Of a stretch of 64,000 nucleotides of DNA, positions 3,522 to 64,000 are shown piece by piece. Position 1 is the first letter of the stretch. Each line of letters opens with the position of its first letter. A model generated the notes under the pieces. That model made no database searches. It was given only the letters and a program-made list of their open reading frames with translations, and was not told the origin of the DNA. Origin of the DNA: a bacterium (lineage in GTDB: Bacteria; Sumerlaeota; Sumerlaeia; SLMS01); NCBI GenBank assembly GCA_016125005.1, contig WGMQ01000021.1, forward strand, positions 8,312 to 72,311. Reading direction: 5' to 3'. The position numbers and the translations under genes are program-made.

Positions 3522-4136
3522 ATGTCCATGCGCATCACCCGCGTCTATACACGATCCGGCGACGACGGCCACACGGGCCTTGTCGGGGGTCAACGCGTTC
3601 CCAAGACCAACCCGCGGATTCAGGCCTACGGAACCACGGACGAACTGGCTTCCTTCATCGGCTGGGCACGGCAGGAACTGGCCGCAGAGCGCGATCTGCT
3701 CAAGGTTCCCGCGGATGCGGAACTGATCGACAAGTTGCTCGAGTACCTCGGCAACAAGCTCTTCACGCTGGGGGGGGACCTTGCCACCCGCATCGAGGAT
3801 CGCCACCCCATGATGCCCGTCATCGTCGATGAGGATATCGCCTGGCTGGAACAAGTGTGTGATCGCTACAACGAGCCGCTGCCGCCGCTGAAGGACTTTA
3901 TCCTCCCCGGTGGATCGCGCACCGCAGCGGCGCTTCACGTGGCCCGGACCATCGCCCGCCGGGCCGAACGCGAAGTCCTTCACCTGCAAGCGGTCGAGGA
4001 CACGGCAGGACTCCCGGGGCGCTATCTCAACCGGCTTTCCGATGCGCTTTTCGTGGTCGCCCGTTGGGTGAATCATCGGATGGGGATCGCAGAGGTGATC
4101 TGGCGCCGGGACTTGGCCGTCCCTCCCCTTCCCTGA
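3522..4136 (+). CDS. cob(I)yrinic acid a,c-diamide adenosyltransferase, PduO type
   Basis: N-terminal ITRVYTRSGDDGHTGL motif (TRxGDxGxT) followed by the helical PduO-type ATR bundle. Confidence 0.85.
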   Translation: MSMRITRVYTRSGDDGHTGLVGGQRVPKTNPRIQAYGTTDELASFIGWARQELAAERDLLKVPADAELIDKLLEYLGNKLFTLGGDLATRIEDRHPMMPVIVDEDIAWLEQVCDRYNEPLPPLKDFILPGGSRTAAALHVARTIARRAEREVLHLQAVEDTAGLPGRYLNRLSDALFVVARWVNHRMGIAEVIWRRDLAVPPLP

Positions 4137-4212: not shown

Positions 4213-4240
4213 TTGAGCAGTTTCGCGACTGTCATACAAT
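4213..4240 (+). promoter_or_regulatory. candidate sigma-70-like promoter of the secretion operon (-35 TTGAGC, 16-nt spacer, -10 TACAAT)
   Basis: TTGAGC at 4213-4218 and TACAAT at 4235-4240, about 70 nt upstream of the EF-hand gene ATG with its GGAGA Shine-Dalgarno. Confidence 0.3.
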
Positions 4241-4310
4241 CTGCTTAACCAGAAGGGTGAAATGCCGCAGCTCTTCAGGCGGTAAACTTCATCACTCGGA
4301 GAAAGCAGTC

Positions 4311-4979: not shown

Positions 4980-6692
4980 ATGACAAACGCGACCCAGCCA
5001 GCCAGCACCCCCAAGCTCGAAGAGCAGCCTATCCTCCAGCGCATGGTTGCCGCCCGCCAGATTCCCTCCGGCGACGCGGCCCAGTTCCTTGCCGCCTTTC
5101 GCGGTGAGGTGGCCACGGAGGAGGAGGTGCTGGCCTGGCTGGCCGCCGAGTACGATTGTCTATACAACGACCTGGAGGGCGCGGCGCCTGAGCGCGAGAC
5201 GCTCGCCCTCTTTCCTCCCCGCCTCCTGCTGAAGGAAGGCATTCTTCCCCTGCGCCGCGACGGCGAAGTGATCGAGGCCGCCACCAGTCGCCTTTTTGCG
5301 CCCGAGGCCTTCGACAGCCTTCGTGTCGTCACCGGCCTCACCATTCGCCCTGTCCTCTCCCCCACCGTCGCGATTCAGCGCGAGACGAAGAAGTGGCTGG
5401 GTGTCGGCGCCGATACCATCGGCACCATCGAGGAGGAAGAGGGTCTTCAGGTTGTCTCCGACGAGGGCGCCGAGGACGGCGACCTGGACGATGCCGCCGA
5501 GGATGCCTCTATCATCCGCTTCGTCAACCAGGTGCTGACCGACGCGGTAAACCTGCGTGCGTCCGACATCCATCTGGAACCGTTCGAGGACGAGCTGCGC
5601 CTACGCTATCGTATAGACGGCCTGCTTCAGGAAATTCCAGTCCCCGCCAGCCTCAAGCGATTCCAGCCCGCCATCGTTTCCCGCATCAAGATCCTCAGCC
5701 AGTTGGACATTGCCGAGAAGCGCCTCCCGCAGGACGGACGCATCAAGATCCGCCTGGAGCAGAAGGAAATCGACGTCCGCGTTTCGCTGATTCCCATGCT
5801 CTACGGCGAAGGCGTCGTCATGCGCCTCCTGCGCCAGGACCGTTCCATCGCGGGCCTCGGTGAAATGGGCATGGCACCGCGCGACGTGAGCGTCTTCCGC
5901 CAATTGCTCGATGTGCCCCACGGCATCGTGCTCGTCACCGGCCCGACCGGCAGCGGCAAGTCCACCACGCTCTATTCCGCCCTCAGCGAGATCAACGATC
6001 AGGTCCGCAAGATCATCACCATCGAGGACCCGGTCGAGTATCACATCAAGGGCGTGAACCAGATTCAGGTGAACGAGAAGACGGGCCTTACCTTCGCCCG
6101 CGGCCTCCGCTCGATCCTGCGTCACGATCCCGACGTGGTGCTGATCGGCGAAATCCGCGACAACGAGACGGCCCGCATCGCCGTGCAGGCGTCCCTCACG
6201 GGTCACTTGGTCTTTTCGACGCTGCATACCAACGACGCCCCCGGCGCCCCGACCCGCCTGATCGACATGGGGATCGAACCCTATCTCGTCGCCTCCTCCC
6301 TTGAAGGCATCATGGCCCAGCGCCTCGTCCGTGTCCTGTGTCGTTCTTGTCGCCGCGAGGACACCACTTCCGCAAGCCGTCTATACGCCCGCCAGATGGG
6401 CATTGCCGACAGTGCACGTCTATACGTACCCGAGGGCTGCGAGAAGTGCCGCCGCACCGGCTACGATGGACGACGTGGCATCTTTGAACTCATGCGCCTC
6501 GACGATTCGCTGCGCGAGATGATCCTCCATTCCCGTTCCTCCGTCGCGCTGCGTGATGCGGCGCGCCTGGCGGGAATGCGGACCCTTGCCGAAGACGGCA
6601 CACGCCTTGTGGGCGAAGGGGTCACATCCTTCGACGAAGTGCTTCGCGTGAGTCGCGTTGAGGGCAACGCGGCTAAGAACGAGGCTGGCTGA
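4980..6692 (+). CDS. gspE: type II secretion / type IV pilus assembly ATPase
   Basis: Walker A GPTGSGKST, Asp box, His box and a C-terminal tetracysteine (CRSC...CEKC) zinc motif; GspE/PilB family. Confidence 0.9.
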   Translation: MTNATQPASTPKLEEQPILQRMVAARQIPSGDAAQFLAAFRGEVATEEEVLAWLAAEYDCLYNDLEGAAPERETLALFPPRLLLKEGILPLRRDGEVIEAATSRLFAPEAFDSLRVVTGLTIRPVLSPTVAIQRETKKWLGVGADTIGTIEEEEGLQVVSDEGAEDGDLDDAAEDASIIRFVNQVLTDAVNLRASDIHLEPFEDELRLRYRIDGLLQEIPVPASLKRFQPAIVSRIKILSQLDIAEKRLPQDGRIKIRLEQKEIDVRVSLIPMLYGEGVVMRLLRQDRSIAGLGEMGMAPRDVSVFRQLLDVPHGIVLVTGPTGSGKSTTLYSALSEINDQVRKIITIEDPVEYHIKGVNQIQVNEKTGLTFARGLRSILRHDPDVVLIGEIRDNETARIAVQASLTGHLVFSTLHTNDAPGAPTRLIDMGIEPYLVASSLEGIMAQRLVRVLCRSCRREDTTSASRLYARQMGIADSARLYVPEGCEKCRRTGYDGRRGIFELMRLDDSLREMILHSRSSVALRDAARLAGMRTLAEDGTRLVGEGVTSFDEVLRVSRVEGNAAKNEAG

Positions 6693-7912
6693 TGGGCATG
6701 TACTCGTACAGGGCTGTCGGCCCCGCGGGGATGACCGAGGGCCAGATCGAAGCGGGAGGCCGCCAGGAGGCGCTTCGGCTCCTCGAAGGACGCGGCCTGC
6801 GTCCCATCCGTGTCGACGACAGCGTGGCACGCCCTGCGCAGGCGAGCGGCAGTGGTTGGAACCTGCTTCCCAGCCAGGTCACCGCCCGCGACCTCGAACG
6901 TTTCACACGCCAGCTTTCCAGCCTTCTCGCCGCGGGCGTTCCCCTGAGCCGCTGTCTTTCGATTTTGGGTCGCGACGGTTCCCGTCCCGCGGCCGTTGCC
7001 GCATGGCGCCAGCTCCGTGACATGGTGGTCGATGGCGTGGCGCTCGCCGATGCGATGGCGCGGCAGCCGACGGTCTTCCCGCGTGTCTATACAGCCATGG
7101 TTCGGGCCGGCGAGGCGGGTGGATTCCTCCCGCTCGTGCTCGGCCAGGTGGCTGATTTCCAGGCGCGCGACAAGGAACTGCGCTCGCGCCTTGTCTCCGC
7201 CATGACCTACCCGGCGGTCCTGCTGCTGCTCACCATCGCCGTGCTGATCTTCCTCATGACCTTCTTCATCCCGCGCTTTCAGGTCATGTTCGAGGGTCTC
7301 GGCGCGCCGCTCCCCGCGTTGACAAACGTCATCATCGCGGCGAGCGAGATCGTCCGCTCCTACGGCTTCATCGTGACCGGCGTACTCATCGTCGGCGTGG
7401 TTGCGGCACGGCAGTGGCTCGCGTCCGACGAAGGTCGCCGCGCCTGGCAATCACTTGTCCTCAAGATGCCGGTCTACGGCCCGCTTGCCGGTCGCCTGGC
7501 CGCCACGCGCTTCTGCCGCATGCTCGGCACGCTGACCAAGTCCGGTGTCGAGCTCATCGCCGCCCTGCAAATCGCCCGCGAATCGCTCGGCAATCAGATC
7601 CTCGCGGATGCCCTCACCACCGCCATCGAGCGCGTCCGCAAGGGCGAGTCACTGGCCAAGGGCCTCGCACTCTGCCCTGACCTTTTTCCCCCGACCATCA
7701 TCGAAATGATCGCCGTGGCGGAGGAGTCGGGCAATCTGGACACCGAATTGGTGCGCCTCGCCGAGGAATCGGAGAAGGAACTCGACGCACAACTTCGCCT
7801 CGCGGTCGCGCTCGCAGAACCGGCGCTTCTCTTCATCATGGCCTCGTTCATCGGGACGATCTTTGTCGGCATGGTCCTGCCGATTTTCACCATCCAAGAC
7901 TACATCAAGTAA
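6692..7912 (+). CDS. gspF: type II secretion inner-membrane platform protein
   Basis: 406 aa, duplicated GspF/PilC domain, three TM segments; the ATG overlaps the gspE TGA (TGATG). Confidence 0.9.
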   Translation: MGMYSYRAVGPAGMTEGQIEAGGRQEALRLLEGRGLRPIRVDDSVARPAQASGSGWNLLPSQVTARDLERFTRQLSSLLAAGVPLSRCLSILGRDGSRPAAVAAWRQLRDMVVDGVALADAMARQPTVFPRVYTAMVRAGEAGGFLPLVLGQVADFQARDKELRSRLVSAMTYPAVLLLLTIAVLIFLMTFFIPRFQVMFEGLGAPLPALTNVIIAASEIVRSYGFIVTGVLIVGVVAARQWLASDEGRRAWQSLVLKMPVYGPLAGRLAATRFCRMLGTLTKSGVELIAALQIARESLGNQILADALTTAIERVRKGESLAKGLALCPDLFPPTIIEMIAVAEESGNLDTELVRLAEESEKELDAQLRLAVALAEPALLFIMASFIGTIFVGMVLPIFTIQDYIK

Positions 7913-7934
7913 CCAAACAAAAGGAGCCTCACAC

Positions 7935-8360
7935 ATGATCCGCCAAGGAAGAAACTCACGCCGCCGCGGCTTCTCGCTCGTCGAGATGCTGCTGGTGCTC
8001 GTCATCCTCGCCACGCTGGCCGCCATCGTAATCCCGCGCTTCGCGGGCCGCAGCGAGCAGGCCAAGGTCACCGCCGCGGAGACGCAAATCACCAGCATCT
8101 CCACTGCCCTCGATTCCTTCGAGGTCGACAACGGGTTCTACCCGCCCTCCGGCGAGGGTCTCACCCAGCTGACCACGAAGCCCGACAGTGCGACCAACTG
8201 GCGGGGGCCGTACCTCAAGCAGGGCGTTCCCAACGATCCGTGGGGTGCCGCCTACGTCTACGAGTTCCCCGGCAAGAACAACGAGCAGGGGTATGACCTT
8301 TCGTCCCTGGGTCCCGACGGTCGCGCCGGCACCGACGACGACATCAAGAACTGGAAGTAA
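7935..8360 (+). CDS. gspG: major pseudopilin (prepilin-type N-terminal cleavage/methylation domain)
   Basis: AAGGAG Shine-Dalgarno 9 nt upstream; leader MIRQGRNSRRRG then FSLVEMLLVLVILATLAAIV with Glu at +5; C-terminal GspG-like core (NDPWG...Y). Confidence 0.85.
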   Translation: MIRQGRNSRRRGFSLVEMLLVLVILATLAAIVIPRFAGRSEQAKVTAAETQITSISTALDSFEVDNGFYPPSGEGLTQLTTKPDSATNWRGPYLKQGVPNDPWGAAYVYEFPGKNNEQGYDLSSLGPDGRAGTDDDIKNWK

Positions 8361-8369
8361 CCGACGGCC

Positions 8370-8873
8370 ATGACCTCGCTCCGCCAACAACGCTCGCGAT
8401 CGGGAGGCTTCACACTGCTGGAGCTGATGGTCGTGCTTGCGCTGCTGGCGCTGGCGGGGGCGCTGGTCGCACCCAACCTGAAGGGTCTCGCCCAGGGCCG
8501 CGGTCCCGAGGAGGAGTCCAGACGCCTCCTCGCTGCTCTGACCCACGCGCGGGACCTGGCGCGGAACAAGGGCGACCGCATCGTTTTCTGGGTGGCCGCC
8601 GACGGGAAAAGCTACGGTCTCCGCGAGACCCGTTCGGGTCGCGATGCATTTGTCTATACAGTTGGCGAGCGCCTTCGCGTGCAGGCCTTCGACGCAGAAT
8701 CGAAGGCAGTGGAGCAGCAGGAGGCGGACGCTTCCTTCTGGCCCGACGGCCTACCCGATGACGCGGCGACACCTCGGTTTCAGTTGCTGGAAAATGAGAC
8801 GGAAGTCGCCAACCTGACGCTCGACACCAACACACGCCGATACGTCCTGACGGTGGCCGCCAATGCGCCCTGA
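8370..8873 (+). CDS. minor pseudopilin, GspH-like
   Basis: Prepilin leader ...SGG|FTLLELMVVLALLAL with Glu+5; size and position after gspG fit GspH. Confidence 0.6.
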   Translation: MTSLRQQRSRSGGFTLLELMVVLALLALAGALVAPNLKGLAQGRGPEEESRRLLAALTHARDLARNKGDRIVFWVAADGKSYGLRETRSGRDAFVYTVGERLRVQAFDAESKAVEQQEADASFWPDGLPDDAATPRFQLLENETEVANLTLDTNTRRYVLTVAANAP

Positions 8874-9237
8874 TCGCGGACAGAACGCCATGACCTTCGC
8901 CGAGTTGCTCGCCGCCATGACCATCATCGCCATCGTGATGCCCGTCATGGTCGGCGCGGTCCTGTTTGCGAACCGGACCGCGGTGATGGGCTCGCGCCGT
9001 GCGGAGGCGGCGTGGCAGGCTGATCAACTCATGCAGGAGGCCATCGCCACGGGAACTTGGCAGGACGGCGACGAGGAAGGTGAACTCAGCAACGGCATGA
9101 CCTGGCGTCGGGAGACCGATGACTGGGATGTGGAGGCACTCTCCACCGTGACCGTGTCCGTCGACTATACGGTGCAGGGAACTGTCTATACAGAGTCCGT
9201 CGTGCGTGCTGTCCGGGTGCCGGAGGCAGAAGAATGA
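8863..9237 (+). CDS. minor pseudopilin, GspI-like
   Basis: Short leader MRPDRGQNA then MTFAELLAAMTIIAIV with Glu+5; the alternative start at 8890 is in the same frame. Overlaps the GspH-like gene by 11 nt. Confidence 0.55.
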   Translation: MRPDRGQNAMTFAELLAAMTIIAIVMPVMVGAVLFANRTAVMGSRRAEAAWQADQLMQEAIATGTWQDGDEEGELSNGMTWRRETDDWDVEALSTVTVSVDYTVQGTVYTESVVRAVRVPEAEE

Positions 9238-9905
9238 ACCGCCGCCGCGCCTTCACCTTGATTGAAGTCCTGATCTCGCTGGCGATTGCCGGTGTGTTGC
9301 TGGCTGCGGTCATCTCGGCCTTGATCGGTTCTATTCGCCTGCGCCGCACCGCCGAACGTCTGGAAACGGAATCAGAGCCCCTTGCCTGGTTCCGCTCCAC
9401 CGTCCGACGCGACTTCGCCAACGCCGTCGTTCCGTCCGGCATCCTTGCTGGCTCCTTCATCGTCACCTCGTCGGGTGAGGAGGAATCCTCCCGCGATCAC
9501 ATTTGGTTCTATACCACTGCGGGCGTCGTGACCGACGCGGCACCGTGGGGCGATGTGCGCAAGGTAGAGTATTTCCTCGATGAGGAGTCTCCTGCCGAGG
9601 GGGAGGAGGAGGCTTATCCTCTCATCCGCCGCGAGACGTTCAATCTCCTCTCCACCGTTGCCGACGAGACGACCTGGCGCGACACGGTGCTGGAGGCGAA
9701 GGCCACCGGCTTTTCCATCGAATGCAGTGACGGCGAGGAGTGGACTGAGTCCTGGGATTCCACTGTCGTGGAAAACGAGAATCCCACGGCAGTGCGCCTC
9801 ACTGTCTATACAGCAAGTGCTGAGCCGCGCGTCGTCGTGCAGGAGATCGTCACACAGCCCCGCCCCGTGGCCGCTGTGGCCGCTGCAGGTGGAGGCACGC
9901 CATGA
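9234..9905 (+). CDS. minor pseudopilin, GspJ-like
   Basis: Leader MNRRRA then FTLIEVLISLAIAGVLLA with Glu+5; 223 aa. Confidence 0.55.
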   Translation: MNRRRAFTLIEVLISLAIAGVLLAAVISALIGSIRLRRTAERLETESEPLAWFRSTVRRDFANAVVPSGILAGSFIVTSSGEEESSRDHIWFYTTAGVVTDAAPWGDVRKVEYFLDEESPAEGEEEAYPLIRRETFNLLSTVADETTWRDTVLEAKATGFSIECSDGEEWTESWDSTVVENENPTAVRLTVYTASAEPRVVVQEIVTQPRPVAAVAAAGGGTP

Positions 9906-11242
9906 GACTCGACCGCCGCGGCATCGTGTTCGTCGTCCTGCTGTGGGCTATCATGGCCCTAACAACCGTCGCCATCTACTTTGCCCATTCCTCGCGCCTT
10001 GTCTATCTCGCCAGCGAATCAGCCGCCGCAGGCTATCAGGCCGAGAATGCGATTTCCTCCGCCGTCGAGTATTTCCTCTATGCGATCCAGACGGAGGAGC
10101 CGGAAGGCAAGTATCTCGACCTGGAGACCGACGGCTACGAGGTGAGTCAAGTACCCCTCGGTGAGGCCCGGTTCTGGTTCCTCGGCTGGGATCGCAACGC
10201 CCTAACCGAGCCATCATCACCTGTCTATACAGCGGTCGACGAAGCAGCGAAGCTCAACATCAACACCGCCGATCAGGAAATGCTCGCAGCGCTCCCGGGC
10301 ATGACCAGCGAGTTGGCTGCGGCCATCGTCGATTGGCGTGATACCGACGAGGAACTTTCCTCGGAAGGCGCAGAGTCGGCCGACTATCTCACGCTCGACA
10401 CCCCCTACGCCGCAAAGAACTCGGAGTTCGAAAGCATCGACGAAATCCGCCTCCTCCACGGCGCCGATCCGGAGATCCTCTACGGCGAGGACCGGAACAT
10501 GAACGGCGTGCTCGACCAGAACGAAAACGACGGTGACGCCTCCTGGCCGCCCGACAACGAGGACGGTATCCTCCAGACGGGCATCATGCGCTACATCACG
10601 GTTTTTTCGCGCGAACCCAACACGAAGAGCGACGGATCGAACAAGGTGAACCTGCGCGGCCAAAGTGCCCGCAGCGACTTGCAGACGCTGGTCAGCGAGC
10701 GACTCGGCGGCGATGTCTTCAACCAGATAATCGCCAACGCGGGGAACAACCTGGGACGACCTGACAGCGTCCTTGCCTTCTATCTTTCCAGCGGTCTTTC
10801 CGAGGCCCAGTTCCGCGAGATCGAGAACGACCTCACCGTCTCGGAGGGCGAGTATCGCATCGGTGCCGTGAACGTGGTGACGGCGCCGCTCGCGGTGCTT
10901 GCGTGCCTGCCGGGAATCACCGGCGAGAAGGCAGAGGAGATCGTCAATGCGCGCCTCAGCCTCACCGACGAGCAGCGCGAGAGCGTGCTCTGGCTTACCA
11001 CGATTCTTGACCCCGACACCTGCCGATTGGTCGGACCGCACATCACGGCGCAGAGTTGGCAGTACGGTCTGGACATCGTCGCCGTGGGTCGCAACGGGCG
11101 CGGCTTCCGCCGCGAATTCGTCGTGGTTGATGTCGAGGACCCGCCGACCGTGATTTTCCGCCGCGATCGATCCCGCGAGGGCTGGCCGCTCGGCGATGAA
11201 GAATTGGAATCCCAAACCGAAGGAGTCGCTTCCAGCCGATGA
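9902..11242 (+). CDS. gspK: minor pseudopilin GspK
   Basis: N-terminal TM without Glu+5 (typical of GspK); KLNINTADQEMLAALPGM...AAIVDWRD helix-hairpin-helix/SAM-like GspK signature. Confidence 0.75.
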   Translation: MRLDRRGIVFVVLLWAIMALTTVAIYFAHSSRLVYLASESAAAGYQAENAISSAVEYFLYAIQTEEPEGKYLDLETDGYEVSQVPLGEARFWFLGWDRNALTEPSSPVYTAVDEAAKLNINTADQEMLAALPGMTSELAAAIVDWRDTDEELSSEGAESADYLTLDTPYAAKNSEFESIDEIRLLHGADPEILYGEDRNMNGVLDQNENDGDASWPPDNEDGILQTGIMRYITVFSREPNTKSDGSNKVNLRGQSARSDLQTLVSERLGGDVFNQIIANAGNNLGRPDSVLAFYLSSGLSEAQFREIENDLTVSEGEYRIGAVNVVTAPLAVLACLPGITGEKAEEIVNARLSLTDEQRESVLWLTTILDPDTCRLVGPHITAQSWQYGLDIVAVGRNGRGFRREFVVVDVEDPPTVIFRRDRSREGWPLGDEELESQTEGVASSR

Positions 11243-12633
11243 TTTCCTTGTCCCAAGCGACAATCCGGGAACGCACGCGCAGGTTGCTGCTGTGCGAGTT
11301 CCGTCCCGATGGCGCGATGCTGTGTGAGTACGCGGTTGGCTCGGCGGGAGCGCGCCAGACCGCGGCGCTTTCCGCCGCCATCCCCGGCGATCCCTGCGGT
11401 CCTGACGCGGCCACGTTCGGCGCCCAGCTTCGCCTGCTCATGCAGGAGCACAAGCTTCGCGGCGGCGCGTGCCTCGTGCTGGTCCCGCTCTCGTGGGTCG
11501 TGACGCACAGCTTCGAAACGCCCGCGCTCTCAGACGCGGACCTGCAATCCATGATCACCCTTGAGGCCGAGAAGGTTTTCCCCTTCGGGCCGTCGGAGCA
11601 GGTCCTCGGCAACTCCGTCATCCGTCCTTCGGAATCGGCAGCCGTCGTCACGCTGGTGGCCATGCAGGCGACACGGCTCGATGCACTGGAGCGTGCGCTT
11701 CGCGGTGCGGGCCTCGGCCCTGTGGCCATCGCCGTCCAAGGCTTTGACGACAGCACCGAAGCCGCGAGTGCGCGCCTCCTGACGGGCCCTTCCGGCCTGC
11801 TGCTCTCGGTGAGCCAGAGCGGTTCCGTCGTGGCGCTGCGCCACCTTTGCGACGCGACGGCGCTCGGCGACCTGGCCGAGCCAGCGCGCCGCGCTGATCT
11901 CGTGCGCGAGGTGAAGATGTCCCTCCGCGCGCTTCCGCAGGCCCTGGGTGCCGCACCGACTGCCATCGTGCTCGAATGGGATCAGGGGCTTCAGGAAAGC
12001 CAGATCGCACCGCTCGCCGAACAGTTCCGCAAAAGTGGCTTCGACCTGCAAAGCCGCCGGGTGACCGAAGGCGAGCAGCGCGTCCGCCTGATCGAGCGCT
12101 GGGCGAAGGAGCATCGCCTCGCGGTGAACCTGCTTCGCCCCCGCCTGTCGCGCTGGGAACGCACCTTCCGCGCGATGAACCGCCGCGGCCTACTGGTCCG
12201 TGCCGTGGCGGGTGCGGGCACCCTGGTGGCCCTCGTGGCGCTGCTGTTCCTCTACCGTGGCTGGCGTGCCTCCTCGCTCGAATCACAGTGGAGCCGCATG
12301 GAATCAGACGTCGCCGTGGTCGAGGGGCTCGAACAGGACATTCGCGCATGGCGGGCCTGGTACAACCCGGCCGTTCCCACGCTCGACCTGATGAAGTCGC
12401 TGACCGAGGCATTCCCCTCCGGTGGCGATGTCTATACAAAGACGCTTCAGATTCGTGACCAACGTGAAGTGATCTGCACCGGCACGGCCAAACGACGGGA
12501 GGATTTTGTGAAGTTTCAGGAGAAACTCGGTGCCACGGCGGGAGTCAGTGGATTGCAGGTCCAGCAGCTTCGCGGCGAGGAGCCCGTGCAGTTCAGCCTT
12601 ACGTTCCGCTGGGCAGGAAGGGGTGGCGCATGA
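11239..12633 (+). CDS. GspL-like assembly protein (cytoplasmic actin-like domain, TM, periplasmic domain; PilM/PilN-like fusion)
   Basis: 464 aa; one central TM (LLVRAVAGAGTLVALVALLFLY); position and topology match GspL. Confidence 0.5.
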   Translation: MISLSQATIRERTRRLLLCEFRPDGAMLCEYAVGSAGARQTAALSAAIPGDPCGPDAATFGAQLRLLMQEHKLRGGACLVLVPLSWVVTHSFETPALSDADLQSMITLEAEKVFPFGPSEQVLGNSVIRPSESAAVVTLVAMQATRLDALERALRGAGLGPVAIAVQGFDDSTEAASARLLTGPSGLLLSVSQSGSVVALRHLCDATALGDLAEPARRADLVREVKMSLRALPQALGAAPTAIVLEWDQGLQESQIAPLAEQFRKSGFDLQSRRVTEGEQRVRLIERWAKEHRLAVNLLRPRLSRWERTFRAMNRRGLLVRAVAGAGTLVALVALLFLYRGWRASSLESQWSRMESDVAVVEGLEQDIRAWRAWYNPAVPTLDLMKSLTEAFPSGGDVYTKTLQIRDQREVICTGTAKRREDFVKFQEKLGATAGVSGLQVQQLRGEEPVQFSLTFRWAGRGGA

Positions 12634-13163
12634 GCAACGATGCACGCAGGAAGCTCCTGATTGTCCTGGCGGGTTGCGGCGTCGGCCTCTTCCTGCTGGA
12701 TGCGGCAGTGCTCCGTCCGCTGGGCAATGCCTGGCAAAGTCAGGGGGAGCGCATCGCTACGGGCAGCCAGCAGGTGGAGCGCGGGAATGCCCTGCTTGAT
12801 CGACGCGATTCCACGAGCGGTCGTTGGAAGAGCATGAAGGACGGCTCGCTCCCGAAGGATACCGCCAAGGCCGAGTCGCTTGTGCTGAGTGCCATCGGCA
12901 ATTGGGCCGGACGTAGTGGGCTCACGGTGTCGAATATTCGCCCGCGCTGGGTCGTGATGAAGAACGTGGGCGACCGGTTCGAAGTCCGCCTGTCCGCCGA
13001 TGGCGACCTTGAGCGAGTCACGCGGTTCATCTATGAGTTGGAGACCGATAGTCTGCCGCTCGCGGTGGAGGAAACGCTCATCCGGTCGAAGACTGACTCT
13101 GGCGACGACCTGAGTCTTGAACTGCGCTTTTCGGCGCTTCGGATCGGGGGAACCGGCGCATGA
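12630..13163 (+). CDS. GspM/PilO-like bitopic inner-membrane protein
   Basis: 177 aa with an N-terminal TM (LLIVLAGCGVGLFLL) then a periplasmic domain; operon position. Confidence 0.45.
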   Translation: MSNDARRKLLIVLAGCGVGLFLLDAAVLRPLGNAWQSQGERIATGSQQVERGNALLDRRDSTSGRWKSMKDGSLPKDTAKAESLVLSAIGNWAGRSGLTVSNIRPRWVVMKNVGDRFEVRLSADGDLERVTRFIYELETDSLPLAVEETLIRSKTDSGDDLSLELRFSALRIGGTGA

Positions 13164-13696
13164 GACTCGTTGCTGTTGGTTGCCTTATCCTGGTCGCAGC
13201 CGTCGCGCTGGTCGGTGCGCAGGAATCCCGCAAGCCCGCGTCCGCGCGGTCCTTCTCCGACTACAACATCCTGCTCCAGCGGAACATCTTCAGCGCCAAG
13301 CGTCGCGCACCGGTCGTGGGCACACGCTCGACTGGGCCTGTCTCCACGGCGCCCACCATCGAGACGGTGACGCTCGTTGGTGTGGTGCTCCGTGACACGG
13401 GAAACATCGCGATCTTCGCCTCTGCGCTCAGTTCCGAGAGCGGTTCTCGAAACCCCGGTGAATCGGTGGCAGGGTTTCGTATAGACGAGATCAGGACGAC
13501 CTCCATCACCATGACGCGTGATGAGAAGAAGCTGGAATGGACGGTGGGGGGAATCCTCCGCCGTATAGACGGTGGCGATTGGTACCTCCCCGAGGCACCA
13601 GGCGCCGCCAGCGACATCACCGCCGATCCCGCCGCCGAGGCGGCAATCCTGAAACGTATGCGCGCCCGCCGGGCGCAGGAGGCCAGCAATGAGTAA
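13160..13696 (+). CDS. GspC/PilP-like secretin-interacting periplasmic protein (putative)
   Basis: 178 aa, N-terminal TM/signal anchor, then a predicted beta-rich domain; sits directly before the secretin genes. Confidence 0.4.
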   Translation: MRLVAVGCLILVAAVALVGAQESRKPASARSFSDYNILLQRNIFSAKRRAPVVGTRSTGPVSTAPTIETVTLVGVVLRDTGNIAIFASALSSESGSRNPGESVAGFRIDEIRTTSITMTRDEKKLEWTVGGILRRIDGGDWYLPEAPGAASDITADPAAEAAILKRMRARRAQEASNE

Positions 13697-15410
13697 GTAC
13701 CGACGTCTTTCCGCCCTGATCCTCTCCGGTGCGCTGGTGTTCCCACTCCTTGCGCAACCGGATCAAGCCCCGGAGCCGACACCGGAAGAGACCCCGGCAC
13801 CCACGCCGGAGCCTACGCCTGAACCGACTCCAGAGCCGACGCCGGAACTCATCCTCCTGGCACCCGTCGAGCCCGGTCCGCCCGATGAATCAGGCGCACC
13901 CCCTGCCGATATGGAGGGCGCTCCACCCGCAGGGATCGACACACCGGAGATGAATGGTTCCGCGATGGACTTCGAGGCCCAGATGCGCCTTCGTCGCCGC
14001 GACTCCGAGATGGAAGGCTCATCGTCCGGCTCTTCGCAGACCTCCGCCGAACCGACGCCGATTCCCAAGCTCATCAGCCTCAACTTCAAAGGCGCGCCCC
14101 TCAATACGGTGCTCGACTACCTCGCGGAGAGCACCGGCTACTCGGTCGTGCGCGGCACCACGGTCGAAGGCACTGTCGACGTCATCAGTCCGACCGCGCT
14201 CTCCACAGAGGATGCGTTGGAACTCGTCACCACGGTCCTCTACCAGCGCGGCTACGCGGCGCTTCGCGTCGGCAAGACGCTGACCATCGTGAAGCGCGAT
14301 GACGCCAGCAAGCGCAACGTCCCGGTCCGTCAGGGGGCCGATCCCGAGGAGATTCCCCTCAGTGACCAGATCGTGACGCAGATCATCCCGGTGCGCTACA
14401 GCCGCGCCAGCGAACTGGTCGACAACATCAAACCCCTCCTGCCCGAGAACTCGATCATCACGGCAAACCAGGGGAGCAACGCCATCATCCTGACCGACTC
14501 GCAGATGAACGTGCGTCGCGTGGTCGAGATCATCTCGGCGCTCGACAAGTCCTTCTCCGAGATCACGACGGTGCGCGCCTTCACGCTTCAGTATGCCGAC
14601 GCGAAGGCGACCGCGACGCTCATCACGACCCTCTTCCAATCGAACACCGCGACAGGGCAGAACGGACGCAACAACGGCGGTACCCAGTTCCGCGGCCCGG
14701 GCGGCCCCTTCGGCGGGAACCGCGGGGGCGACAGCTCCAGCTCCGATTCGTCCGCCGCGGCGCTTCAGGCTTCCTCTCGCATCGCCGCCGGTGCGGACGA
14801 GCGAACCAACACGCTGGTCGTGGCGGCGCCTGGAGCCCTGATGCCTGCCATCGAGGAGCTCCTCACGCAGATCGACAAGTCGACGGACGTCCTCACCGAG
14901 GTACGCGTCTTCCCCCTCAAGTACGCTGACGCCCAGGAGATGGCCACGCTGGTGACCAGTGTGTTCGCCCCGAGCAGTACAACAACCACCAGCGGCAGCA
15001 ATAACAACAATCGGGGCCAGCGCTTCTTCCAGTTCGGTGGCTTTGGCGGTTTCCGGGGACAAGGTGGCAACAGCCAGCAGACAGCGGGTCAGAGTGAGCG
15101 CCAACAGGCTGAGGATTCCGTCGTCGCCGTCGCGGACACGCGCACCAACTCGATCGTCGTGAGCGCCGTCGGAAGCGTGCTGGACCAGGTCGAGCAGGTC
15201 GTCAAGGGTCTCGACCGCGATCCATCCGGCACGAAGAAGGTCCACGTCTACGAGTTGAAGAACGCGCGCCCCGAGGAGGTCTCGGCCCTCATCGAGGAGA
15301 TGTTTGGCACCTCGACCTCGTCGTCGACCACGACGCGATCCTCGAACAATAACACGCGCTCGAACAACACGGGGACGCGGAACAATAATAACCGGAACAC
15401 GGGGAACTGA
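13689..15410 (+). CDS. secretin N-terminal module (N0-N1-N2 plus the first half of N3), separate ORF with its own signal peptide
   Basis: Signal peptide, then a (PEPT)n linker, an N0 domain (LISLNFKGAPLNTVLDYLAESTGYSVV) and repeated secretin N-domain beta-alpha units (IIPVRYSRASELVDNIKPLL; VRAFTLQYADAKATATLITTLF; VRVFPLKYADAQEMATLVTSVF; VHVYELKNARPEEVSALIEEMF). Each unit is interrupted by a Gly/Asn/Ser-rich low-complexity loop. The ORF stops at TGA 15408-15410. Confidence 0.7.
   Translation: MSKYRRLSALILSGALVFPLLAQPDQAPEPTPEETPAPTPEPTPEPTPEPTPELILLAPVEPGPPDESGAPPADMEGAPPAGIDTPEMNGSAMDFEAQMRLRRRDSEMEGSSSGSSQTSAEPTPIPKLISLNFKGAPLNTVLDYLAESTGYSVVRGTTVEGTVDVISPTALSTEDALELVTTVLYQRGYAALRVGKTLTIVKRDDASKRNVPVRQGADPEEIPLSDQIVTQIIPVRYSRASELVDNIKPLLPENSIITANQGSNAIILTDSQMNVRRVVEIISALDKSFSEITTVRAFTLQYADAKATATLITTLFQSNTATGQNGRNNGGTQFRGPGGPFGGNRGGDSSSSDSSAAALQASSRIAAGADERTNTLVVAAPGALMPAIEELLTQIDKSTDVLTEVRVFPLKYADAQEMATLVTSVFAPSSTTTTSGSNNNNRGQRFFQFGGFGGFRGQGGNSQQTAGQSERQQAEDSVVAVADTRTNSIVVSAVGSVLDQVEQVVKGLDRDPSGTKKVHVYELKNARPEEVSALIEEMFGTSTSSSTTTRSSNNNTRSNNTGTRNNNNRNTGN
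13776..13850 (+). repeat. tandem Pro-Glu-Pro-Thr coding repeat (PEPTPEETPAPTPEPTPEPTPEPTPE) in the secretin N-module linker
   Basis: Direct reading of the gagccgac / ccggag(c)c triplet-based repeats. Confidence 0.6.
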
Positions 15411-15418
15411 GCGCGATC

Positions 15419-21863: not shown

Positions 21864-24446
21864 ATGAAACCATACGCCACTGTCCTGCAAGGCCTTGCCT
21901 TTGCCCTGATTCTTGGACCGGTGCTGGCCGACGAGCCTGCCGCATCGGACCCTGCCGCGGCGCTCGCCTCCGGCAAGCTGGTCATTCACTACCATCGTTT
22001 CGACGGCAATTACGATACCCCGGGCCTTTGGACCTGGGATGGGCGAAAGCAGAAGGAGCCTACCTCGCCCGAGGTCCTTTCCTCCGGGAAGACCGATTAC
22101 GGCGCTTGGTTCGCCGTCGACCTTGCCGAGTTCGGCAACGACGACGGTCCCGAGGAGCGGATCGGGTTCATCCCGCGGTTACGGCGTGACTGGAACATGA
22201 AGGACGGCAGTGATCGCTACTGGACGCCCGAACTGGGACGCGAGGTCTGGTTGATCGGCAACGACCCGCGCATCTATACGGTGCGACCCGACACCTCCCC
22301 CAAGATCGATCAGGCCTACGTCGACTCGGCCCGCCAGGTGACCCTCGTGCTCTCGACGGCGCTCCCCGCCGCCGAGGCCAAGCCCGGCACCTTCACCGTG
22401 ACCGACAGCGACAAGAAGAACTATCCGGTCAGCGCCGTGCAGCTTGTCTCCGCCAAGGACGGCGCCAGCAAGTTGGTCGAGGTGAGTCTTGCCGAGGATC
22501 TAGACTTCCTGAGCCAGACAGTGACCGTTTCCAGCGAGGCCTATCGTCCGGCCGACGCGGTGCTCCGACGCGTGCTCGACGACAAGTCCCGCTTCTTTTC
22601 CAGCGAACCCATGGGCGCTGTCTATACGCCCGAGGCAACGACCTTCCGCCTCTTCTCCCCCACCACCCGCGAAGTCAGGCTGGTGCTGTACGACAATGCG
22701 ACGGGCAAGGATGGCCGCAAGGAAGTCCCCATGACTCGCGGCACCAACGGCGTCTGGTCGGCTGAGGTGAAGGGTAATCTGGAGGGACGCCACTACAAGT
22801 ATCTGGTGACCAGCCAGCGCTATGACACGCAGGAGATCAACGACCCCAACGCGACCAATACCACCGGCGACGACGGCAACGCCCGCATCACCAACGTGCG
22901 CGCCCTTGACCCACCCGGTTTCCGTCCCATCAAGCGCCCCGACTACGGCAAATCGCCGACGGACGCCATCATCTACCAGATGCACGTCCGCGACTTCACC
23001 GTGCTCGCCAGTTCCGGCGTCTCGGCCGATAACCGTGGCAAGTATCTTGGCCTGACCGAGTCGGACACGCACCTGCCCAGCGACGAGGGAATCAAGACCG
23101 CCTTGGCCCACCTGAAGGAACTGGGCGTGACCCATGTCCAGATCCAGCCCTTCCACGACTGGGACAATGACGAGGACAAGCCGGAGTACAACTGGGGCTA
23201 CATGACCGCCTTCTTCAACTCTCCTGAGGGCTCCCTCTCCAGCGACATCCGCTCCACAGCCCGCATCCGCGAAGTGAAGCAGATGGTGCAGGCCATCAAG
23301 GAAGCAGGTCTGGGCGTGATCCTGGACGTCGTCTATAACCACACGGGCGTTCAGAACACCTTCGAGCACTCGGCGCCCGGCTACTTCCTGCGGATGCGCC
23401 CCGACGGCTCGTTTTGGAACGGGTCCGGCACGGGGAACGAACTGCGCACCGAGGCCCCGATGGCCCGGCGATTCGTCATCGACTCGCTCAAGTACTGGGT
23501 GGACGAGTATGGCATCGACGGCTTCCGCTTTGACCTGATGGGACTGATCGATCTGGAGACCCTCAAACAGGCCAAGACGGAGCTGAGGGCTCTCTATCCC
23601 GAGATCATGTTCTACGGCGAGCCTTGGGCCGCAGCCGGTCCCGACGGCGTTGGGGTCGCCCAGATCGTCTACAAGGATGTGCTGAAGGGCACGGGGATCG
23701 CCGCATTCAACGATCACTTCCGCGATGCGCTCAAGGGATCACCGGACGGCAACGATCCCGGCTACATCGTCAACGGCACGCGCCGCGACGGCGTCATCCG
23801 CGGCATCGCCGGTTCCATCGACGACTGGACCACGAGCCCCATCCAGTCCATCAACTACGCCGACGTCCACGACAACCTGATCCTGCATGACAAGATCAAG
23901 TACTCGGCTCCGGATGCCACGGAAGAGGAGCGGGCGCAGATGCAGATGCTCAGCGGCGGCATCCTCGCCGTCTCGCAAGGCATCATGCTGGTCCACACCG
24001 GCGCGGACTTCCTTCGCAGCAAGAAGGGCGAGCACAACAGCTACAACGCAGGCGACGAGATCAATGGCGTCCACTGGGAGTTGAAGAAGCAGCACCACGA
24101 CGTCTTCGAGTTCTATAAGGGCGTCATCGCGATTCGCAAGGCTCACCCGATGTTCCGCCTTGGCTCCGCCGAGGAGGTCCGCAAGCGCGTCAAGTTCATG
24201 GAGGATCAGCGCCCCAACGCCGAGTCCATCGTCTTCACGGTGAGCGGTGAAGGCCTGGAAGGCGAGACGTGGAAGGAATCATGTGTCCTGATCAACCCCA
24301 CCGCCGAGCCTGTCTACTTTGAGATCCCCGGCGACGATCCGTGGAACGTATTTGTCCTCGGTGACAAGGCAGGGACCGAGAGCCTCGGCGAACAGCGCGG
24401 CAGCCTTGAGGTTCCCGGACGCGGAATGGCCGTCCTCGGCCGCTGA
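21864..24446 (+). CDS. pullulanase-type GH13 debranching enzyme, secreted
   Basis: Signal peptide; GH13 regions YNHTG, GFRFDLMG, YGEPW and a conserved His/Asp region; pullulanase-like N-terminal CBM/E-set domains. Pullulanase is the prototype type II secretion substrate. Confidence 0.85.
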   Translation: MKPYATVLQGLAFALILGPVLADEPAASDPAAALASGKLVIHYHRFDGNYDTPGLWTWDGRKQKEPTSPEVLSSGKTDYGAWFAVDLAEFGNDDGPEERIGFIPRLRRDWNMKDGSDRYWTPELGREVWLIGNDPRIYTVRPDTSPKIDQAYVDSARQVTLVLSTALPAAEAKPGTFTVTDSDKKNYPVSAVQLVSAKDGASKLVEVSLAEDLDFLSQTVTVSSEAYRPADAVLRRVLDDKSRFFSSEPMGAVYTPEATTFRLFSPTTREVRLVLYDNATGKDGRKEVPMTRGTNGVWSAEVKGNLEGRHYKYLVTSQRYDTQEINDPNATNTTGDDGNARITNVRALDPPGFRPIKRPDYGKSPTDAIIYQMHVRDFTVLASSGVSADNRGKYLGLTESDTHLPSDEGIKTALAHLKELGVTHVQIQPFHDWDNDEDKPEYNWGYMTAFFNSPEGSLSSDIRSTARIREVKQMVQAIKEAGLGVILDVVYNHTGVQNTFEHSAPGYFLRMRPDGSFWNGSGTGNELRTEAPMARRFVIDSLKYWVDEYGIDGFRFDLMGLIDLETLKQAKTELRALYPEIMFYGEPWAAAGPDGVGVAQIVYKDVLKGTGIAAFNDHFRDALKGSPDGNDPGYIVNGTRRDGVIRGIAGSIDDWTTSPIQSINYADVHDNLILHDKIKYSAPDATEEERAQMQMLSGGILAVSQGIMLVHTGADFLRSKKGEHNSYNAGDEINGVHWELKKQHHDVFEFYKGVIAIRKAHPMFRLGSAEEVRKRVKFMEDQRPNAESIVFTVSGEGLEGETWKESCVLINPTAEPVYFEIPGDDPWNVFVLGDKAGTESLGEQRGSLEVPGRGMAVLGR

Positions 24447-44521: not shown

Positions 44522-45778
44522 CTATTCCACGGTGGCAAGTTCCTCGATGCGGCGGCGCAGCAGACGGCGCTCGGGTTCCTGCTGGGAAAGCTCCAGCGCT
44601 CGTCCGAAAGCCTCCGCCGCCTGCACTTTCTCCCCCGCCCGGCGGAGCAACTCGCCGCGGGCCGCGTGGGCGAAATGATAGTCCACCAGCTCGCCCCGCG
44701 CGAGCAAGGCATCGATCTCGGCCAGCCCCGCCGCCGGGCCATCGCGCATGGCGAGCGCCACCGCGCGATTGAGCGCCACCACCGGCGACGGGTCGGCTTC
44801 CAGCAGGACCGTGTAGAGCGCCACGATCTGCGCCCAGTCCGTGCGGTCCGCCGTCCGGGCCTCCGCGTGGACGGCCGAGATAGCCGCCTGGATCGTATAG
44901 ACACCGAAGCTACGGCTGGCGAGTGCCCGTCGCACCAGAACAATGCCTTCGGCGATCAGCTCGCGATCCCAAAGTGCGCGGTCCTGATCCTCCAGCAACA
45001 CGATGTCGCCGTCGCCATTCGACCGCGCGACGCGGCGCGATTCGTGGAGGAGCATGAGCGCGAGCAATCCCATGACTTCGGGATCGGGATGCAGTTCGAG
45101 GAGCAGGCGACCGAGGCGAATGGCCTCGCCACTTAGATCCGCGCGGGTGTGGGACTCGCCCGATGACGCGCAATAGCCCTCGTTGAAGATCAGGTACACC
45201 ACGGCGAGGACCGCATCGAGCCGGTCCGGAAGGTCATCCAGCGACGGGATCGTGTAGGGAATTCGCGCGTCCCGAATCTTGGCCTTTCCGCGTACGATCC
45301 GCTGGGCCATGGCGCTGGGCGAGGTCAGGAATGCGCTGGCGATTTCCTCCGTGGTCAGGCCGCAGACCTCGCGCAGGGTCAGCGGAACCTGTACCTTCGG
45401 GTCGATGGCCGGGTGGCAACAGGTGAAGATCAGCCGCAACCGGTCGTCCTGAATGTCGCGCTCCGCAAGGGACAGATTGGCCGCCTCGATTTCATCGGCG
45501 CGCCGCAGCAACTCAGACTGAAGCCCATCGAGCCGGGAGCTCCGACGCATCAGGTCGATGGCCTTGAAACGCCCCGTCGACACAAGCCACGCCACGGGAT
45601 TGGCCGGAATGCCGTCGCGACGCCAGGTCTCCACCGCCGCTGCGAAGGCCTCGTGAGACGCCTCCTCGGCCAAGTCGAAGTCTCCGAGGATACGCACCAG
45701 GGTGGCGAACACCTTGCCGGAGTCCTCACGGTAGATCCGCGCCAGTTCTCGCTCGGTGGTGTCGTTGTGAGCATTCAC
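44522..45778 (-). CDS. ECF sigma factor with long C-terminal TPR-like extension (COG4941 type)
   Basis: Start set at GTG 45778 (AAGGAG upstream) giving [45 protein letters not shown]; sigma regions 2 and 4, then about 200 aa of helical repeats. This family is known to neighbour YciI-like genes. Confidence 0.75.
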
Positions 45779-52882: not shown

Positions 52883-52913
52883 CCCCCGCCAGCGATGGCG
52901 GGGGATTTTTTCG
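52883..52913 (+). terminator. rho-independent terminator after the radical SAM gene (possibly bidirectional)
   Basis: CCCCCGCC-agcgat-GGCGGGGG stem followed by ATTTTTTCG; a GTCTATAC motif copy follows immediately. Confidence 0.75.
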
Positions 52914-52931
52914 TCTATACAGGCAACAGCT

Positions 52932-63585: not shown

Positions 63586-64000
63586 ATGGCAGTCTCGTTG
63601 CTGGCGGGCCGCTCCGGTTCCGGCAAGACACACCACATCCTTGAGGAAGTCTGCGCTGCCTGCGCAGCCGATCCCTTCGGCGCGCCGATCTTCCTGCTGG
63701 TTCCTGAACAGGCCTCCTACCAGACCGAGAAGGCTCTGCTGACCCACGGCCCCATTCGTGGCTACACCCGGGTGCAGGTGCTGAGCTTTGCCCGTCTTGC
63801 CCAGTTTGTCTATACGACGAACCCGGCACCGACACTGCCGGTCCTCACCAACCAACACCGCGACTTCCTGGTTCTTCTCCTCCTTCATCGCTGGCGTCGC
63901 GAACGACCGGGCACGTTCCTGGACACGCCCGGCATCGAGGACTCCCTCACGCAACTGGTCGCAGAGGCGCGGCATCAGGCCGTTGAAGCCACCGATCTGC
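63586..64000 (+). CDS. addB: ATP-dependent helicase/nuclease subunit B (AddB/RexB), N-terminal part
   Basis: GGGAGG Shine-Dalgarno; MAVSLLAGRSGSGKTHHILEEV...APIFLLVPEQASYQTEKALL closely parallels the AddB N-terminus (…FLVGRSGSGKT…IIFLVPDQMTF…). Runs off the window end. Confidence 0.7.
   Translation, partial: MAVSLLAGRSGSGKTHHILEEVCAACAADPFGAPIFLLVPEQASYQTEKALLTHGPIRGYTRVQVLSFARLAQFVYTTNPAPTLPVLTNQHRDFLVLLLLHRWRRERPGTFLDTPGIEDSLTQLVAEARHQAVEATDL

Follow-up and report, generated by a model that had tools for sequence, protein, structure and literature searches.

A 10-bp word written into the coding sequence of a Sumerlaeota type II secretion operon is best supported as a duplex-DNA recognition sequence

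The operon for a type II secretion system (T2SS) in a 64-kb stretch of a Sumerlaeota genome (contig WGMQ01000021.1; the whole stretch is called the window below) carries, inside its genes, a dozen exact copies of a short word, YGTCTATACR (Y, pyrimidine; R, purine). The best-supported interpretation is that this word is a duplex-DNA recognition sequence, that positive selection or drive acts on it, and that its copies are concentrated in the tract from gspE to gspC. The source genome was examined over these 64 kb, and its relatives as short metagenome contigs, which are designated by L numbers.

The word emerged from a k-mer census of the window as the octamer GTCTATAC (reverse complement, GTATAGAC). 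It occurs 17 times, 13 times on the forward and four times on the reverse strand, whereas dinucleotide-preserving shuffles of the window contained a mean of 0.17 copies and never more than one. An exact recount agreed with the initial annotation of the stretch, which had placed 12 of the 17 copies at positions 5158-13570 and five in the other DNA of the window, with four copies in gspE, one in gspF, one in each of the GspH-, GspI-, GspJ-, GspK- and GspL-like genes and two, both antisense, in the GspC-like gene (Table 1). To these antisense copies must be added one in gspE (position 5611), which the annotation did not give. Relative to the genes, 13 copies are sense, three are antisense and one is intergenic. 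The 12 copies of the operon tract lie within 8.4 kb, about 540 times the expectation, and a span of this size received at least 12 of 17 points in 1 of 200,000 uniform placements. Outside the operon, 55.6 kb hold five copies (about 34 times the expectation), all five with a pyrimidine before and a purine after the octamer. The density of the word in gspE-gspC is about 16-fold above that of the neighbouring DNA (~1 per 0.7 kb vs ~1 per 11 kb).

A pyrimidine precedes and a purine follows GTCTATAC in 17/17 copies of the window, and in 33/33 copies when two relatives, L082 and L087, are included; the unit is the 10-mer. Its limits are sharp. The 24 octamers that differ from it by one substitution have 0-3 copies each in the window, i.e. 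they are at background, and the aligned copies showed no conservation past positions -1 and +1 of the octamer. The word is a near-palindrome, YGT-CTAT-ACR, whose centre is invariant and asymmetric. Chance copies that encode V-Y-T at a conserved GspF site in Verrucomicrobiota break the Y/R rule. A literature search for the word returned primers only. Within the window and L082, the bases at -1 and +1 are Watson-Crick complementary (T..A or C..G) in 15/15 operon copies (5157-13571 in the window; 2677-6704 in L082), and where the coding frame forces a C flank the free flank is G in 6/6 cases; the five non-operon copies of the window have T..G or C..A, and only 6/13 copies of L087 are complementary. 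Extension of the word into a hairpin or a longer palindrome was rejected, because the two positions co-vary only in the window and L082 and fail to do so in L087, and because folding predicts no stem. A second frequent word, AGGAAATC (17 copies in the window, ~0.9 expected by base composition), was set aside as an ordinary (K/E)-E-I codon word; it is spread over both strands (e.g. at 5764, 24511, 46951 and 54826).

Coding sequence holds 32 of the 33 copies in the window, L082 and L087, and promoter-type spacers hold none. Ten sense copies in the window are read as GTC-TAT-ACN (V-Y-T) and three as xGT-CTA-TAC (x-L-Y), while the antisense copies appear in the mRNA as CGT-ATA-GAC (R-I-D). The word, as GTC-TAT-AC(A/G), encodes 10 of the 11 V-Y-T tripeptides found in the window, although the genome, with 63% GC, uses TAT, ACA, CTA and ATA only as minority codons. 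When orthologous operons were aligned by codon, most copies fell at residues unlike those of every orthologue: C-L-Y vs CAF/CRF in GspE, TVYT vs RQYS/TTYS in GspI and R-I-D vs QIK/TIE in GspC. At most motif sites, the motif-free orthologues are at least 4 of 8 nt away from the word. Because the word uses minority codons, several frames and amino-acid replacements, the selection or drive on it acts at the nucleotide level. The initial annotation had remarked that V-Y-T is not a conserved pseudopilin motif, and we agree: V-Y-T arises as a side effect of selection that acts on the nucleic acid and that uses rare codons and the x-L-Y and R-I-D frames too. Its description of the pseudopilin copies as V-Y-T in the C-terminal half of the genes holds in part; the copy in the GspK-like gene is at codon 108 of 446 and is therefore not C-terminal, and three gspE copies encode x-L-Y instead. 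The alignments showed no indel at any copy, and a transposon footprint was rejected on this ground.

Antisense copies make up 7 of the 28 T2SS copies of the window, L082 and L087, and they keep the Y/R flanks. They cost amino-acid changes and rare ATA and AGA codons, and one of them is common to the window and L087. All five stop-free frames are used (sense V-Y-T, x-L-Y and x-S-I-x; antisense R-I-D and x-Y-R-x); the sixth would create a TAG stop. The 13:3 excess of sense copies compares with 11 sense and one antisense among ordinary 1-mismatch sites, which indicates a bias of coding opportunity, and it is not significant against the expectation from three of five frames (0.6; P = 0.07). On each single strand GTCTATAC and GTATAGAC are both enriched; the palindromic hybrids GTCTAGAC and GTATATAC, and all other words of the form GT-N-TA-N-AC (16 in all), have 0-1 copies in the window. 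A single-strand reader that tolerates changes at the inner positions should accept the hybrids, and the observed pair therefore argues for reading of the asymmetric duplex. Since antisense copies are selected, five frames are used, the sense excess is explained and the hybrids are not enriched, the data point to duplex DNA, and not the mRNA or the non-template strand, as the molecule that is read. No Rfam match was found in the window, and a 3-bp mini-hairpin was rarely predicted by thermodynamic folding. Control of one polycistronic mRNA, by processing, ribosome pausing or an anti-termination-like signal, had been the first suggestion for the role of the word; antisense copies that are equally well formed, and hybrids that are not enriched, lend it no support. 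The other suggestion was a DNA-level signal for shuffling pseudopilin genes. Its level is borne out, but its role is not, as only 10 bp are conserved, the changes are point substitutions, the genes include essential ones and no recombinase gene lies nearby. Internal promoters or enhancers were also considered and rejected: 8/12 copies of the window lie at most 320 nt before the next start but only 3/13 in L087, and the word is a poor match to a -10 element.

Pfam matches in the tract comprised GspE (4980-6692), GspF, GspG, three N-methyl pseudopilins (H-, I- and J-like), GspK, a PilM/GspL-like protein, GspM and a GspC-like protein; 3' of the GspC-like gene lie a secretin in two open reading frames (ORFs), a histidine kinase and a sigma-54-dependent response regulator. 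The cluster of copies falls short of the operon ends; the first gene, which encodes an EF-hand protein, as well as gspG, gspM and the 2.8-kb split secretin have no copy (P = 0.011). The gspD, kinase and regulator genes lack the word in L082 as they do in the window. Spacing within the operon, described earlier as fairly even, is no more even than random (coefficient of variation 0.84 vs 0.93 under the null, 37th percentile). A rule of one copy per pseudopilin gene is likewise weak, the number of genes with a single copy giving P = 0.07: the major pseudopilin gene gspG has none, and the distribution in L087 differs, with no copy in gspH, two in gspG and two in gspK. Nor is the word a property of pseudopilin genes as such, since it is missing from a second one in the window (30671-31435, minus strand). 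That second gene, GspG-like, adjoins the gene for a 550-aa protein with a pullulanase X25 domain (29018-31435, minus strand, for the pair); neither gene has the word, and one 1-mismatch site lies at 30902. The composition of the operon is ordinary and the GC skew tracks the strand of the genes, and an origin, a terminus or a genomic island was rejected on these grounds.

Table 1. Copies of the word in the window and the tract in which most of them lie (positions in the window).
Feature	Positions	Strand	Gene and reading	Remarks
gspE-gspC tract	4980..13696	+	GspE, F, G, H-, I-, J-, K-, L-, M-, C-like	Pfam, clustering; 12 copies
tGTCTATACa	5157..5166	+	gspE, sense, TGT-CTA-TAC (C-L-Y)	orthologues CAF/CRF
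cGTCTATACg	5610..5619	-	gspE, antisense, coding strand CGT-ATA-GAC (R-I-D)	common to L087, homologous codon
cGTCTATACg	6378..6387	+	gspE, sense, R-L-Y	
cGTCTATACg	6417..6426	+	gspE, sense, R-L-Y	L087 copy 2 nt off, V-Y-T frame
tGTCTATACa	7084..7093	+	gspF, sense, V-Y-T	common to L087; pre-adapted, L085 1 nt away
tGTCTATACa	8651..8660	+	GspH-like gene, V-Y-T	
tGTCTATACa	9183..9192	+	GspI-like gene, V-Y-T	common to L087, inside identical 18-nt stretch
tGTCTATACa	9803..9812	+	GspJ gene, V-Y-T	
tGTCTATACa	10222..10231	+	GspK gene, V-Y-T	codon 108 of 446
tGTCTATACa	12429..12438	+	GspL/PilM-like gene, V-Y-T	
cGTCTATACg	13478..13487	-	GspC-like gene, antisense, R-I-D	
cGTCTATACg	13562..13571	-	GspC-like gene, antisense, R-I-D	
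cGTCTATACa	3542..3551	+	PduO-type cobalamin adenosyltransferase gene, V-Y-T	0.7 kb upstream of operon
tGTCTATACg	22619..22628	+	pullulanase gene, V-Y-T	downstream of operon; candidate T2SS substrate
tGTCTATACg	44894..44903	-	ECF sigma/DUF6596 gene (minus strand), sense, V-Y-T	
cGTCTATACa	52912..52921	+	intergenic, between convergent genes	sole intergenic copy, directly after intrinsic terminator of radical-SAM gene
tGTCTATACg	63807..63816	+	addB gene (AddB N-terminal domain), V-Y-T	

The word recurs in the T2SS operons of two other lineages, at positions that are mostly independent. L087 (a Logan assembly, SRR35364711; GspE 72% and GspK 47% identical, GC 69%) has 13 copies in 10.4 kb vs 0.02 expected, nine of them sense and four antisense, and L082 (also a Logan assembly, SRR24204713; GspK 66% identical to that of the window) has three sense copies in 11.85 kb vs 0.01 expected. 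No copy was found in other Sumerlaeota T2SS operons, those of L002, L085, L103, L086, L083, L068, L071 and L075. Among these, L002, a Candidatus Sumerlaeota metagenome-assembled genome, is the nearest GTDB genome to that of the window (GspF 71% identical). L064 has one copy in gspF, which lacks the Y flank and resembles the chance copies of Verrucomicrobiota. The GspE proteins of the window, L087, L085, L002 and P0122 are roughly equidistant (71-76%); because this equidistance spans word-bearing and word-free lineages, the distribution of the word is patchy over a deep radiation.

Three copies are common to the window and L087 at exactly homologous codons (R-I-D in GspE, V-Y-T in GspF and V-Y-T in GspI), and none is common to the window and L082; all other copies were gained independently. 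The GspF site is pre-adapted, L085 being one base off. The GspI site is not, and every motif-free orthologue is 5-6 of 8 nt away from the word there; the copy is inside the best-conserved 30-nt stretch of gspI between the window and L087 (25/30 identical, rank 3 of 366), in a protein that is 46% identical between the two. At one spot in gspE, the copy of the window is in the x-L-Y frame and that of L087, 2 nt away, is in the V-Y-T frame; the two therefore have separate origins. Overall, the operons show an ongoing gain and turnover of copies, driven by a directional force, and the retention of a few old ones. Metagenome DNA scanned with the two patches of gspI and gspF that are common to the window and L087 gave no match. 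In the searched collections no T2SS relative was closer (none above 76% identity), and L103, the nearest to L087, has no copy.

Some further differences among these loci deserve mention. The T2SS of the window has no relative above 76% for GspE or 73% for GspK, and its NuoD (34416-35639) has relatives at 93-95%; the T2SS operon (4980-16498) has either evolved unusually fast or been replaced or imported in this lineage. Positions 1-297 of L087, upstream of its T2SS operon, encode the C-terminal, helix-turn-helix part of what is, by reading of the translation, a putative AraC-type regulator. Its place is taken in the window by the PduO adenosyltransferase gene, and the two loci are not syntenic here.

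Copies are also found away from the secretion operon. The non-T2SS DNA of relatives was sampled as nuo-operon contigs, which were fetched via NuoD homologues. L089 and L090 (NuoD 93% identical to that of the window) had one and no copy, respectively, in ~10 kb, and the nuo contigs of L093-L096 (NuoD 82%) had none. L097, a Sumerlaeota-like contig (SRR29704194; NuoD 82%), had five copies in 15.3 kb vs 0.06 expected, at 146, 5184, 7313, 8571 and 12917, in nuoD, nuoF, a cellulase gene and other genes; 4/5 are antisense, and 2/5 follow the Y/R rule. The nuoD copy recurs in L098-L102, that is, in six independent samples. There is a moderate genome-wide excess of the word in at least two lineages, with a denser operon layer on top of it.

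How could such a word work? A putative sequence-specific protein, encoded outside the window, would read the asymmetric duplex in either orientation. Selection would repeatedly have written the word into the coding DNA of gspE-gspC, using the stop-free frames that were locally tolerated, at a cost in rare codons and amino-acid replacements. In the window and L087 the result would be some 12-13 sites over the operon body, one per 0.7-0.8 kb, and this multi-site array would act on the whole operon, most plausibly by silencing, road-blocking or bridging it. The binder would be of a global, nucleoid-associated type, with sparser sites elsewhere, for example in the pullulanase gene; pullulanase is a classic T2SS substrate. 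To this reading, an array for a sequence-specific DNA-binding protein of the nucleoid-associated type that silences, road-blocks or bridges the operon body, we assign a probability of about 0.4. It is favoured because the word is independent of orientation and indifferent to promoters, because two lineages have a similar copy number (12-13) despite turnover of positions, and because sparse sites exist elsewhere, including the one in the pullulanase gene. The reader would probably be a protein, one that binds DNA rather than modifies it, and its effect may be repressive or architectural. The E. coli gsp operon is silenced by H-NS, and intragenic road-block operators are known in the cre sites of CcpA within ORFs and in lacO2. 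Such systems are similar in that proteins inside or coating a transcribed region repress an operon, with a precedent for a nucleoid protein that silences a T2SS and its substrate; they differ in using one or two sites, or degenerate AT-rich tracts, and not a dozen exact 10-mers.

Several observations weigh against this array reading. Neither the window nor the contigs of relatives yielded a candidate gene for the reader. Classical regulators use promoter sites, and promoters contain no copy. For the word to be distributed so patchily, its reader must have been lost repeatedly or have spread horizontally. Unrelated housekeeping genes show an enrichment of the word as well, both in the window outside the operon (~34-fold) and in L097, and it is therefore not a signal private to the operon. 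Finally, operon specificity is demonstrated in the window only, because the contigs of L087 and L082 include hardly any DNA from outside the T2SS; the little flanking DNA there, 1.2 kb on the upstream side in L087 and, in L082, the 4.7 kb with the secretin, kinase and regulator genes, has no copy. A related but differently drawn proposal is that the word is an address label for the operon body, with a dedicated reader (a protein or a nucleic-acid-guided one) of the exact 10-bp duplex, and that about a dozen copies have been kept by selection in deeply diverged Sumerlaeota while the system was lost or replaced in sister lineages. This we put forward tentatively, as an idea with the odds against it.

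The word might instead be genome-wide, of the uptake-sequence or Chi type, and be read by the DNA-uptake or AddAB machinery, the operon being either a local hot spot (e.g. of frequent allelic replacement) or an import from a word-dense relative. This is the main rival, which we regard as rather unlikely. The uptake signal sequence of Haemophilus and the DNA uptake sequence of Neisseria are, like the word, exact and lineage-specific, occur in both orientations, arise via point substitution and inflate the frequency of an encoded tripeptide (V-Y-T here). Uptake sequences are also written into ORFs in favoured frames and at poorly conserved residues (PMC2817400; PMC2346458), as the word is, and the excess outside the operon (5 copies in 55.6 kb of the window; 5 in 15.3 kb of L097 vs 0.06) suits this explanation. 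However, they occur at ~1 per kb genome-wide, with a density that is nearly independent of, or poorly correlated with, gene function (PMC2817400), whereas the word reaches 1 per 0.7 kb in the operon and ~1 per 11 kb around it, a ~16-fold concentration in one operon. A function-independent density of ~1 per kb was not found within the 64 kb, a provisional result (12 copies in 8.4 kb vs 5 in 55.6 kb). Neighbouring, poorly conserved hypothetical genes are without copies, and L089 and L090, close relatives by NuoD, have 0-1 copies in ~10 kb. That the copies of L097 keep the Y/R flanks in 2/5 cases also counts against a common genome-wide word, although it may reflect a different specificity of the reader. 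Chi, the signal of AddAB and RecBCD, resembles the word as an over-represented asymmetric octamer with a density of ~1 per 3-11 kb (as found here outside the operon) and a strand ratio of ~3:1 (13:4 in the window). Moreover, AddB is encoded in the window, which ends within the addB gene (AddB N-terminal domain, 63553-63999), and this gene itself has one copy. Chi is read on one strand and co-oriented with replication over long distances; opposite orientations of the word interleave within 0.5 kb, which would be atypical of Chi and KOPS alike, and the strand ratios (13:4 in the window, 9:4 in L087 and 3:2 in L097) have a skew that follows the strand of the genes. Symmetric Y...R flanks and a 12-copy operon cluster are not properties of Chi either. 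An imported tract would fit with cluster edges that do not match the operon edges, and with T2SS relatives of at most 76% identity vs 93-95% for NuoD, but the composition of the operon is ordinary. We know of no uptake- or Chi-like word described before in this candidate phylum.

The remaining explanations are less probable. A DNA methyltransferase, orphan or phase-variable, could use the word as its target, the array then giving epigenetic on/off control of secretion. Recognition of the duplex in either orientation, single-base sharpness, Y...R ends typical of sites of the restriction-modification type and adenines on both strands all suit such an enzyme; no gene for one was found in the window, however, and methyltransferase targets are normally not enriched, certainly not ~500-fold in one operon. 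Contiguous asymmetric targets of 8-10 bp are also unusual for methyltransferases, and on balance we find this explanation improbable. Even lower stands an element acting on RNA or on transcription, be it a seed target of a small RNA, a site for an RNA-binding protein or an endoribonuclease, or an ops-like site for the loading or pausing of a NusG paralogue. In its favour, 21/28 T2SS copies (75%) are sense, the Y/R flanks fit the G.U wobble tolerance of pairing to a guide 5'-UGUAUAGACG-3' and are Watson-Crick complementary in the 15 operon copies of the window and L082, and folding predictions leave the word more open than control positions (0.64 vs 0.43). Long operons for envelope structures are, besides, the classic targets of RfaH-type factors, and ops is a short (~12 nt), exact element of long operons for extracytoplasmic structures. 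Yet the antisense copies are equally well formed, costly and conserved, the hybrids are unenriched, the sense bias is explained by coding opportunity (P = 0.07 vs 0.6), the complementarity of the flanks fails in L087 (6/13), the copies in L097 are antisense in 4/5 cases, and neither a consistent hairpin nor an Rfam match was found. Whereas ops is single, lies in the 5' leader and is read on the non-template strand, the word recurs within genes, in many copies that fall on either strand; the 5' leader, between a promoter-like site (4213-4240) and the first genes, is free of it, and no NusG paralogue (no NusG/KOW match) was found in the window.

Site-specific recombination that shuffles, inverts or deletes pseudopilin segments, in the manner of shufflons or invertons, would find in the word two dyad arms, YGT and ACR, that enclose 4 bp without symmetry (CTAT), much like a miniature recombinase core, with both orientations present; the V-Y-T copies in gspF, H, I, J, K and L of the window, six in number, share one frame and would permit in-frame exchange. 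We nevertheless think it highly improbable. Shufflon and inverton sites are repeats of at least 12-19 bp with a recombinase and rearranged variants, while the word has 10 conserved bp, far below what a recombinase site needs, and nothing beyond +/-1. The five operons of the window, L082, L087, L085 and L002 are collinear, with no indels or rearranged synteny, gspE and gspF, which are essential and single-copy, contain sites, and the window yielded no recombinase gene. Chance, codon usage, common protein motifs or an assembly artefact can hardly be credited at all. It is true that V-Y-T belongs to conserved protein motifs in GspF (FPRVYTAMV) and PduO (VYTRxGD), and that several Verrucomicrobiota have single copies of the word at the GspF site. 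No shuffle, however, reaches the counts observed in the window, L087, L082 and L097, the copies use disfavoured codons, several frames and both strands in unrelated surroundings, and the word is present in independent assemblies from different sequencing runs.

Among regulatory and architectural systems, clusters of parS sites for ParB (and also matS, NBS and ram) offer about ten near-palindromic sites in ~10 kb, inside genes, which ignore frame, orientation and promoters and are accompanied by a few sparser sites elsewhere. The word is 10 bp and asymmetric, whereas parS is a conserved 16-bp palindrome, TGTTNCACGTGAAACA; only 3-mismatch matches to it, at chance level, were found in the window, and the proteins of the window gave no match to ParA or ParB. 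In addition, the word cluster follows the secretion operon across lineages, and not a chromosomal landmark. The dre operators of HutC/GntR regulators (NagR/DasR; idealised GTGGTCTAGACCAC) share the GT-N-TA-N-AC core and dyad-like ends with the word, which is one base from the dre core GTCTAGAC, and their polysaccharide and amino-sugar regulons would suit a T2SS with a pullulanase (PMC4333415). The specific contacts of NagR fall on outer positions, -7 to -4 (PMC4333415), and dre sites are in promoters; in contrast, the word has no conservation beyond +/-5 from its centre, its inner N positions are invariant, the palindromic GTCTAGAC is not enriched, and 0/33 copies are in a promoter-type spacer. 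No match to a GntR-family regulator was found in the window. The word shares some and lacks other defining properties of every family considered, no named family fits, and we file it under clustered cis-acting DNA sites outside the named families.

Regulatory and architectural DNA signals are normally sought between genes, and here a 10-bp word is imposed a dozen times on the coding sequence of a secretion operon, with a strength sufficient to override codon preference and amino-acid conservation and with some copies kept across very deep divergence. Should the word be an address label, operon control or locus organisation would be encoded inside the genes rather than in promoters, and protein sequences would be bent to it. 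If its reader is a DNA-binding protein, whole operons would be addressed in a manner not seen before, and proteins would evolve under a new class of constraint; if the word is uptake- or Chi-like, the operon-scale hot spot would be unprecedented. The prediction is that one protein in these uncultured bacteria binds YGTCTATACR. The case also carries a warning, in that tripeptide "motifs" of pseudopilins can be the shadows of DNA signals.

A few minor features of these loci were recorded in passing. The GspD secretin is encoded by two adjacent ORFs, one for the N0/Secretin_N part and one for the Secretin part, in the window (13689-15410 and 15419-16498) as well as in L082 (7118-9831), L085 (13803-16429) and L103 (5136-7799); because it is present in all these Sumerlaeota-like operons, the split is conserved and no frameshift error. 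A gene for a secreted EF-hand (calcium-binding) protein lies directly 5' of gspE in the window (4257-4970), L085 (4243-4884) and L087 (502-1188), and the pair of histidine kinase and sigma-54 response regulator genes is conserved directly 3' of the secretin. A de novo octamer scan covered 80 orthologous loci, and the lineage-specific octamers that it contained for Verrucomicrobiota were discarded as tandem 6-7-nt repeat arrays in gspG spacers, a different phenomenon. In the T2SS loci of that phylum, inverted arrays of such repeats occupy the spacers that flank gspG (L009, 9851-9978 and 11264-11333; L015, 11287-11378; L029 and L035, 12647-12697 and 13394-13459; L038, 5508-5657; L056, 11305-11326), with repeat units that vary by lineage (GAACATC, CAACATC, GGATTA/AGATTA, CGGATTT). 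These arrays resemble long hairpins, built of repeats, on the flanks of the gene for the major pseudopilin. Lastly, putative endonuclease genes of the Uma2 family (PF05685) are inserted between nuoD and nuoE in several relatives (L090, 7919-9186; L091, 2538-3098; L097, 5561-6187; and L098-L101), where the window has a small ORF and a cyclophilin gene.

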